From the IMG/VR virus record IMGVR_UViG_3300045988_104226: a DNA stretch of 38,837 nucleotides; one strand, 5' to 3'. Position 1 is the stretch's first letter. Every line of letters starts with the position of its first letter. Under the pieces are notes generated by a model that made no database searches, had not been told where the DNA came from, and was given only the letters and a program-made list of their open reading frames with translations. Shown piece after piece: positions 30,024 to 30,191 of this stretch. Both the position numbers and the translations under genes were made by a program. The stretch is from a virus.

Positions 30024-30112
30024 TGGCGACAGACTGTGTATTCGAAACACATACTTAAAATAAGTACACATTGCTTAGCAGGCAAGTTCCAGACCTCCTG
30101 GATTAATCTGTC
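30024..30112 (-). tRNA. trnS: Class II tRNA with anticodon GCU (Ser-like) and a non-canonical acceptor/D junction
   Basis: GACAGAT TAA TCCAG GAGGT CTGGA A CTTGC CTGCTAA GCAAT, then a long variable arm (TACTTA ttt TAAGTA), then TGTGT TTCGAAT ACACA GTCTGTC G CCA. An 8-bp acceptor with a 4-bp T stem is an alternative fold. Confidence 0.6.
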
Positions 30113-30115
30113 ATT

Positions 30116-30191
30116 TGGATGCATCTTCAAGACTAGAACTTGAAACTTCAACATTCAAAGTGTTGTGTTCTACCATTTGAACTAAGATGCA
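30116..30191 (-). tRNA. trnQ: tRNA-Gln (anticodon UUG), 76 nt with encoded CCA
   Basis: TGCATCT TA GTTC AAATGGTA GAAC A CAACA CTTTGAA TGTTG AAGTT TCAAG TTCTAGT CTTGA AGATGCA T CCA. All stems are Watson-Crick. Confidence 0.85.

Follow-up and report, generated by a model that had tools for sequence, protein, structure and literature searches.

A long variable arm and the discriminator G73 are established identity elements for seryl-tRNA synthetase (SerRS). This enzyme also accepts tRNA-Sec and the 8/4 allo-tRNAs (PMC5389517). One subgroup of the (8/4) allo-tRNAs, the (8/4) tRNA-Ser, was described from phages and rumen Clostridia (Mukai et al. 2017, Nucleic Acids Res 45:2776, PMC5389517). In E. 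coli, 8/4 allo-tRNAs that carry G73 are efficient at inserting serine, and some allo-tRNA-like genes elsewhere are inactive (PMC5389517). In the literature searched, only this 2017 study discusses natural phage allo-tRNAs, and no description of the gut-phage 8/4 tRNA family presented here was found.

In this study a stretch of viral DNA of 38,837 nucleotides, hereafter the window, was analyzed. Our analysis suggests that the gene at 30024-30112 (minus strand) is a functional phage serine tRNA with a rare, previously described 8/4 fold, which carries the anticodon GCU, reads AGU and AGC and would be charged and used in decoding. We assign this reading, which is drawn from sequence, a probability of about 0.82.

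The phage and its tRNA-Gln/tRNA-Ser pair

With a GC content of about 28%, the window is AT-rich; it represents a temperate siphovirus or prophage of uncultured gut Clostridia. The integrase is located on the plus strand (3977-5230). Genes on the minus strand include the major head protein (20869-21840), portal (25046-26518), large terminase (26708-28060), small terminase (28060-28638), a DUF6275 protein (30325-30603) and a small transcriptional regulator (30739-30987). The small terminase appears in 236 indexed blocks of the searched collection, indicating that the phage is common in human-gut assemblies. A minor head protein of 497 amino acids (Phage_min_cap2, PF06152; 23544-25037, minus strand) shows, on identical public contigs, extra matches to the ADP-ribosyltransferase toxin domain PF03496. 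Within the DUF6275 gene (window 30325-30400), a stretch of 40-78 nt has 86-90% DNA identity to Lactobacillus, Fusobacterium and Enterococcus phages, a nucleotide conservation across genera that is unusually broad. Comparison with GenBank phage records (INPHARED) returned only a short DUF6275 segment, and neither the Gln nor the Ser tRNA was matched there. An exact-sequence look-up of the 152-aa ORF at 29089-29547 gave no match, for which the chosen start codon is probably responsible.

ARAGORN at default settings identified two tRNAs in the whole window, tRNA-Trp(CCA) and tRNA-Gln(UUG), both on the minus strand. The tRNA-Trp(CCA) (22538-22611, minus strand) is canonical according to ARAGORN and Rfam RF00005 (64.5 bits). 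It stands isolated amid the head-module genes as the third tRNA of the phage, and in six related contigs (L042-L046 and L051) a tRNA-Trp(CCA) follows the small terminase gene downstream at a similar distance. The tRNA-Gln(UUG) (30116..30191, minus strand) is the first gene of the tandem pair. The original prediction that it folds canonically agrees with the ARAGORN cloverleaf and with the RF00005 match (63.5 bits). A 3-nt spacer, AAU (30113..30115, minus strand), separates its CCA end from the 5' end of the serine tRNA. The sequence details predicted for this second gene, an 89-nt class II tRNA lying 3 nt past the tRNA-Gln with the anticodon loop CUGCUAA (GCU, Ser), were found to be correct. 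The pair is oriented as the phage genes and CCA is encoded in both tRNAs. It lies in a gap of 604 nt without a called gene on identical public contigs (L006 2314-2919), in line with the ORF-free gap of about 600 nt predicted. Mechanical ORFs that overlap the tRNAs are uncalled in the public annotations of those contigs.

Directly upstream of the tRNA-Gln on the minus strand, no sigma-70-like promoter was found. Just upstream of the tRNA-Gln there is an inverted repeat, AGAACTTTCCTAGCGAGTTCT (window 30200-30220, minus strand), which is a candidate processing, terminator or regulatory hairpin. This repeat is kept in L026, a relative lacking the tRNAs, where it forms the left border of the cassette indel.

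The tRNA-Ser(GCU) is present on nine fetched contigs, eight of them identical and one with a G-to-A change in the D loop. Both the Gln and the Ser tRNA are absent from the near-identical phages L005, L009, L012, L026 and L031, and the cassette is thus dispensable. Comparison with L026 revealed that the pair has been cleanly inserted or deleted between flanks common to both phages, and that homology restarts precisely at the 3' terminus of the tRNA-Ser(GCU). In related phages other tRNAs (Gln, Met, Pro, Ser) occupy the same slot upstream of the small terminase. The Gln-Ser pair is an optional cassette that fills a variable tRNA slot, with the late-regulator/DUF6275 genes on one side and the terminase genes on the other. 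An attP or integration site was considered for this element and ruled out, as the integrase lies 25 kb away and the tRNA occupies a slot upstream of the terminase.

Fold of the tRNA-Ser(GCU)

The tRNA-Ser(GCU) of 89 nt (class II, GACAGAUUAAUCCAGGAGGUCUGGAACUUGCCUGCUAAGCAAUGUGUACUUAUUUUAAGUAUGUGUUUCGAAUACACAGUCUGUCGCCA; 30024..30112, minus strand, as are all parts listed here) was assigned an 8/4 fold from its MFE fold, covariance models, pair counts and RNAalifold. The MFE structure is an 8/4 cloverleaf (-25.4 kcal/mol, z = -2.5) made up of an 8-bp acceptor stem, a 2-nt connector, a 5-bp D stem, a 6-bp anticodon stem with a bulged U, a 7-bp variable stem and a 4-bp T stem. The 5' strand of the acceptor stem (tRNA positions 1-8, GACAGAUU; 30105..30112) pairs with the 3' strand (positions 78-85, AGUCUGUC; 30028..30035), which is followed by the discriminator G (30027) and the encoded CCA (30026-30024). 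The connector consists of A9 and A10 (30103..30104). The D arm (30088..30102) has the 5-bp stem UCCAG/CUGGA and the 5-nt loop GAGGU, which contains the G18 and G19 equivalents. The anticodon arm (30068..30087) has a 6-bp stem with bulged U43 and the loop CUGCUAA, with the anticodon GCU at 30079-30077. The long variable arm (30051..30067) consists of a 7-bp stem with the closing pair G46:U62 and a 3-nt loop, and the T arm (30036..30050) of the 4-bp stem GUGU/ACAC and the canonical 7-nt loop UUCGAAU. Both acceptor alternatives that had been pointed out, a 7-bp stem followed by UAA or the 8-bp GACAGAUU/AGUCUGUC, are present in the sequence together with the predicted 5-bp D stem and 5-nt loop.

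Standard tools largely failed to recognize this gene. ARAGORN gave no call for 30024-30112 at default settings or at the 95% threshold. Only at the 80% threshold was a "tRNA-Ser(gct)" reported, forced into a crippled 7/5 cloverleaf in which the D stem has only 2 bp, the anticodon stem is mismatched and the variable arm is left unpaired. Nor did covariance models return an ordinary tRNA-Ser: a search of 701 nt against Rfam matched no family to the tRNA-Ser(GCU) at E<=10, the tRNA (RF00005) and tRNA-Sec (RF01852) families included. The GCU-type tRNA of the related contig L022 likewise had no RF00005 match at E<=10. The window tRNA scored 117.5 bits with R1, a covariance model built on the 8/4 fold, and 96.6 bits with R2, a model built from 37 family members. 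R2 gives at least 69 bits to every family member, compared with 17-19 bits for the canonical 7/5 tRNA-Ser(UGA) neighbours found in L002, L111 and L136.

A different reading of the same sequence is an ordinary 7/5 class II tRNA-Ser(GCU) with an extra connector nucleotide (U8 A9 A9a), a C·U mismatch at 27:43 and a compact D arm, in which the eighth acceptor pair is merely apparent. U8 is a canonical tRNA base, ARAGORN at 80% draws the 7/5 fold, and in the window sequence the 7/5 alternatives (-24.0 and -23.5 kcal/mol) are only 1.4-1.9 kcal/mol worse than the 8/4 fold. This energy gap is small, so thermodynamics alone is not decisive. Against this reading, the Rfam 7/5 tRNA model remained without a match and the canonical neighbours score far below the family with R2, as given above. 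Comparison of homologues also bears on it. Under a 7/5 fold, position 78 pairs with position 62 of the variable arm, and U62:A78 pairs as well as U8:A78 in 21 of the 25 homologues.

To compare the folds, 25 distinct GCU-type sequences from gut phage, prophage and metagenome contigs were aligned with MAFFT (alignment A4) and pairs were counted under both models. Standard pairs occupy 99.9% of cells under the 8/4 model and 95.4% under the 7/5 model. Pairs changed on both sides number 17 of 28 in the 8/4 model and 15 of 26 in the 7/5 model. None of 500 shuffles reached the values observed for the 8/4 model, and slid controls gave 27-45% paired. All 12 pairs of the acceptor branch are paired in 99-100% of cells. 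The eight acceptor-stem pairs are paired in 100% of cells, with double changes in six of them, and all four T-stem pairs show double changes. The connector A9 A10 is invariant (25/25) and the D-stem pairs 12:24 and 15:21 covary. In the variable stem, whose length ranges from 5 to 7 bp with covariation, 46:62 is GU in all 25 sequences and 50:58 occurs as five pair types.

The pair that decides for the 8/4 model, 8:78, is U:A in 21 sequences and A:U in four. The corresponding 7/5 pair, 62:78, is U:A in 21 and U·U in the same four sequences that have A8:U78. A change of A78 to U is thus accompanied by A8 while U62 stays, and the invariant G46:U62 closes the variable stem; both argue against the 7/5 fold. 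The four A8:U78 sequences, which come from large phage contigs, represent two acceptor-sequence lineages, GCAGCAUA and GCGGAGUA, and the metagenome set adds extra variants of one of them. The switch at 8:78 comes from these two lineages only, and in the remaining 21 sequences both folds are possible. RNAalifold on the same alignment independently returned the 8/4 consensus and added a sixth D-stem pair, 16:20, which is present in 22 of 25 sequences.

The anticodon stem points in the same direction. Position 26:45 is G:C in 17 sequences and A:U in eight, 27:44 is C:G in all 25, and 27:43 (C·U), the mismatch called for by the 7/5 reading, pairs in none. Covariation at 26:45 with an invariant 27:44 indicates that the anticodon stem comprises 6 bp and that U43 is bulged throughout; the irregularity first described as a C·U mismatch or bulge is therefore present, and by covariation it is the bulge. 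Taken together, covariation in the aligned sequences supports a decision for the 8/4 over the 7/5 fold, and we regard an ordinary 7/5 tRNA-Ser as very unlikely. The 8/4 architecture originally proposed is thus upheld by the 8:78 switch from U:A to A:U, by the U·U at 62:78 in the same four sequences and by RNAalifold.

Identity features are strongly kept among the 25 sequences, with the discriminator G in 25, an encoded CCA in 21 and the anticodon loop CUGCUAA invariant. The last base of the D loop is U or C in 24 of 25. The equivalent of the G19:C56 contact (C56 at T-loop position 69) is kept in 24 of 25. D-loop position 18 and the position-55 equivalent (T-loop 68) are G/U in 10 sequences and A/G in 15, with no mixed cases; this split may be a single event and is therefore weaker evidence. 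From these positions, the contact between D loop and T loop looks preserved in the GCU-type tRNAs. The 15 variants of the second kind have the T loop UGCAAGU or UGUAAGU, in which G replaces the near-universal U55 (for example L092 5845-5932), and this G is always accompanied by A, not G, at D-loop position 18 (A4 columns 18 and 67-73). The window tRNA has the canonical T loop UUCGAAU with G18.

Chance can be excluded as the origin of the element, since it is identical or nearly so in many independent assemblies and has diverged homologues with compensatory changes. It could also be read as a decayed tRNA pseudogene or as a tRNA-like element outside translation, such as a processing signal, recombination site or regulatory RNA. 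Consistent with that are the rejection of the gene by standard detectors, the dispensable nature of the cassette and the existence elsewhere of inactive allo-tRNA-like genes (PMC5389517). However, the pairing of 99.9% of stem cells over 25 distinct sequences, with many compensatory changes, the conservation of the anticodon loop, G73 and G19:C56, the location within arrays of normal tRNAs and the large distance from the integrase (3977-5230) all argue against it. We consider this explanation extremely improbable, and a pseudogene in particular is rejected on account of the compensatory changes.

Distribution of 8/4 serine tRNAs in gut phages

Searches with R1 detected diverged copies of the tRNA-Ser(GCU) in L022, L028 and L029. 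An exact 42-mer and an exact 18-mer of the window tRNA found no match in IMG/VR. A degenerate pattern was needed because the close IMG/VR relatives differ in the D arm (G16A in L117, further changes in L095). The degenerate pattern of the D and anticodon arms matched 36 contigs in IMG/VR and 11 from MAGs of uncultured gut Clostridia or Clostridium. It also matched 43 metagenome contigs, many of which carry a human gut label. Two of the 11 MAG loci (L130 and L133) were scanned for protein domains and both are phage or prophage: L130 has a 17-tRNA cluster directly upstream of terminase, portal and capsid genes, and L133 encodes an MT-A70 methylase and a sigma region 4 protein. Four other MAG loci carry tRNA clusters or the same prophage variant. 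The copies of tRNA-Ser(GCU) are always found in phage or prophage tRNA clusters or slots, upstream of terminase. The 8/4 tRNA-Ser family is hence common in phages and prophages of human-gut Clostridia, with dozens of contigs among IMG/VR, ENA, JGI metagenomes and MAGs.

The array of L130 (257-1776) comprises 15 tRNAs called by ARAGORN and two uncalled 8/4 tRNA-Ser. This array and that of L131 (6555-7916), both on phage contigs in Clostridia MAGs, include a tRNA-Ile(UAU), and their serine tRNAs are solely the two 8/4 types. A class II tRNA-Tyr(GUA) shares its locus with 8/4 serine tRNAs in L138 (1347-1434), where it adjoins one of them, and in L120 (1581-1667). The family model gives 30 bits to the copy in L138, whose T stem seems weak.

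A backbone pattern with a free anticodon returned the identical 36 contigs, all with GCU. The family also includes a sister tRNA type with only the UGA anticodon, which is also a serine anticodon. The UGA sister has the same 8-bp acceptor stem and AA connector, and its D stem is of 6 bp with a CGGC tetraloop. It usually adjoins the GCU type (L092 6011-6099, L097 2490-2578, L131 6634-6722, L138 1439-1527 and many others). ARAGORN calls some of its copies (for example L022 2490-2578) and misses others (L028 and L029). The occurrence of the serine anticodons GCU and UGA only argues for genuine serine isoacceptors. Recoding by a missense or nonsense allo-tRNA was also considered and is ruled out by these two being the sole anticodons found. 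A canonical 7/5 tRNA-Ser(UGA) directly follows the 8/4 tRNA-Ser(GCU) in three contigs (L002 1034-1122, L111 1802-1890 and L136 1923-2011), indicating that both architectures coexist in one cassette.

An alternative view is that the 8/4 fold is not neutral. It may serve to evade host tRNA-directed defences or toxins, such as anticodon nucleases and toxins modifying the acceptor end, with charging by SerRS kept. In its broader form, the 8/4 fold of both the GCU and the UGA isoacceptor would be a phage-specific adaptation, competent for SerRS and EF-Tu and a poor substrate of defences and toxins, and the cassette would be an anti-defence module rather than a codon supply. There are both proposals and demonstrations that phage tRNAs counteract defences aimed at tRNAs (PMC10264068, PMC11555353), and the toxin MenT3 prefers tRNA-Ser (PMC11541572). 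The phage or prophage nature of the two scanned MAG loci, with the tRNA clusters or shared prophage variant in the four others, is consistent with such a role. In many arrays both serine isoacceptors are 8/4 and the other tRNAs are canonical by ARAGORN. However, a canonical tRNA-Ser(UGA) stands beside the 8/4 tRNA-Ser(GCU) in L002, L111 and L136, the anticodon loop is unremarkable, and the 8/4 fold may simply be inherited from a host tRNA-Ser. We judge defence evasion to be improbable, and the view of the cassette as an anti-defence module just as improbable.

Proposed function and comparison with known systems

The preferred reading remains a functional serine tRNA for phage translation. The two genes are codirectional with the phage genes, lie 3 nt apart and both encode CCA; the tRNA-Ser(GCU) is accordingly expected to share a transcript with the upstream tRNA-Gln(UUG), running the same way as the phage genes, and then to be matured by an RNase P cut and exonucleolytic 3' trimming. 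Host seryl-tRNA synthetase would charge it through the long variable arm and the discriminator G73. Acceptance by EF-Tu is likewise predicted, and it fits the structure since the acceptor/T helix is 12 bp long whether it is built from 8+4 or from 7+5 pairs. The charged tRNA would then add to the capacity to decode AGY, the class of serine codons that the phage uses most. Codon usage was counted for the phage side of the phage and host comparison that had been proposed. In the window ORFs AGT is the most used serine codon (38%) and AGC accounts for 9%, so that AGY makes up 47% of serine codons; CAA accounts for 87% of glutamine codons. With AGT and CAA dominant, tRNA-Ser(GCU) and tRNA-Gln(UUG) match the dominant codons of the phage.

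The family has consequences for annotation. Serine tRNAs are undercounted in phage tRNA inventories and codon-supply analyses, owing to ARAGORN and Rfam missing the 8/4 family, and the alignment and covariance model from this study can be used to annotate it. The window tRNA is a clean natural example of a non-7/5 tRNA backed by covariation, and the family offers naturally occurring 8/4 scaffolds that could serve studies of tRNA structure and genetic-code engineering. Knowledge of tRNA architecture as such is unchanged, as the 8/4 serine class was published in 2017.

The original prediction had likened the tRNA to both tRNA-Sec and allo-tRNAs; the likeness to allo-tRNA, that is to (8/4) tRNA-Ser, stood, and that to tRNA-Sec did not. 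Bacterial tRNA-Sec (selC, RF01852) shares with the tRNA-Ser(GCU) the 8-bp acceptor stem, a long D stem with a small loop, the 6-bp anticodon stem, the long variable arm and G73, and serylation by SerRS is the expected first step in both. However, tRNA-Sec has a 13-bp branch (8/5) and normally UCA as anticodon, whereas the tRNA described here has a 12-bp branch (8/4) and GCU. A tRNA-Sec is ruled out by this 12-bp branch, by the GCU anticodon and by the missing match to RF01852 at E<=10.

Canonical class II tRNA-Ser (7/5, RF00005) shares the long variable arm, G73, a serine anticodon, the presumed function, the TΨC-type loop UUCGAAU and the GG in the D loop. Unlike the canonical form, which has a 7/5 branch, U8-N9 and a spacer at position 26, the tRNA-Ser(GCU) has an 8/4 branch, an AA connector, no spacer and a compact D loop.

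The closest likeness is to the (8/4) tRNA-Ser of Mukai and coworkers. The shared features are the 12-bp acceptor branch of 8+4 pairs, the long variable arm, G73 (the published class has G73 or U73), an extended anticodon stem, a serine anticodon, which sets (8/4) tRNA-Ser apart from missense or nonsense allo-tRNAs, and the occurrence in phages and Clostridia, often in tRNA clusters. The D arm agrees in part, having a long stem with a small loop and, in nearly all sequences, a pyrimidine as last loop base. The novelty is accordingly lower than implied at first, given that this class, with examples from phages and Clostridia, was already in the literature (PMC5389517). The sources differ: the sequences analyzed here come from human-gut Clostridia prophages and phages, and those of the earlier study from macroalgal-surface phages and rumen bacteria. 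The published class has a Sec-like long D stem with a tetraloop, whereas the GCU type has a D stem of 5 bp with a 5-nt loop; the UGA sister, with 6 bp and a CGGC tetraloop, agrees fully with the published D arm. The 6-bp anticodon stem with an invariant bulged U is a feature of the GCU type, unlike the published class. Compared by described features, the tRNA-Ser(GCU) matches the published (8/4) tRNA-Ser class as a member.
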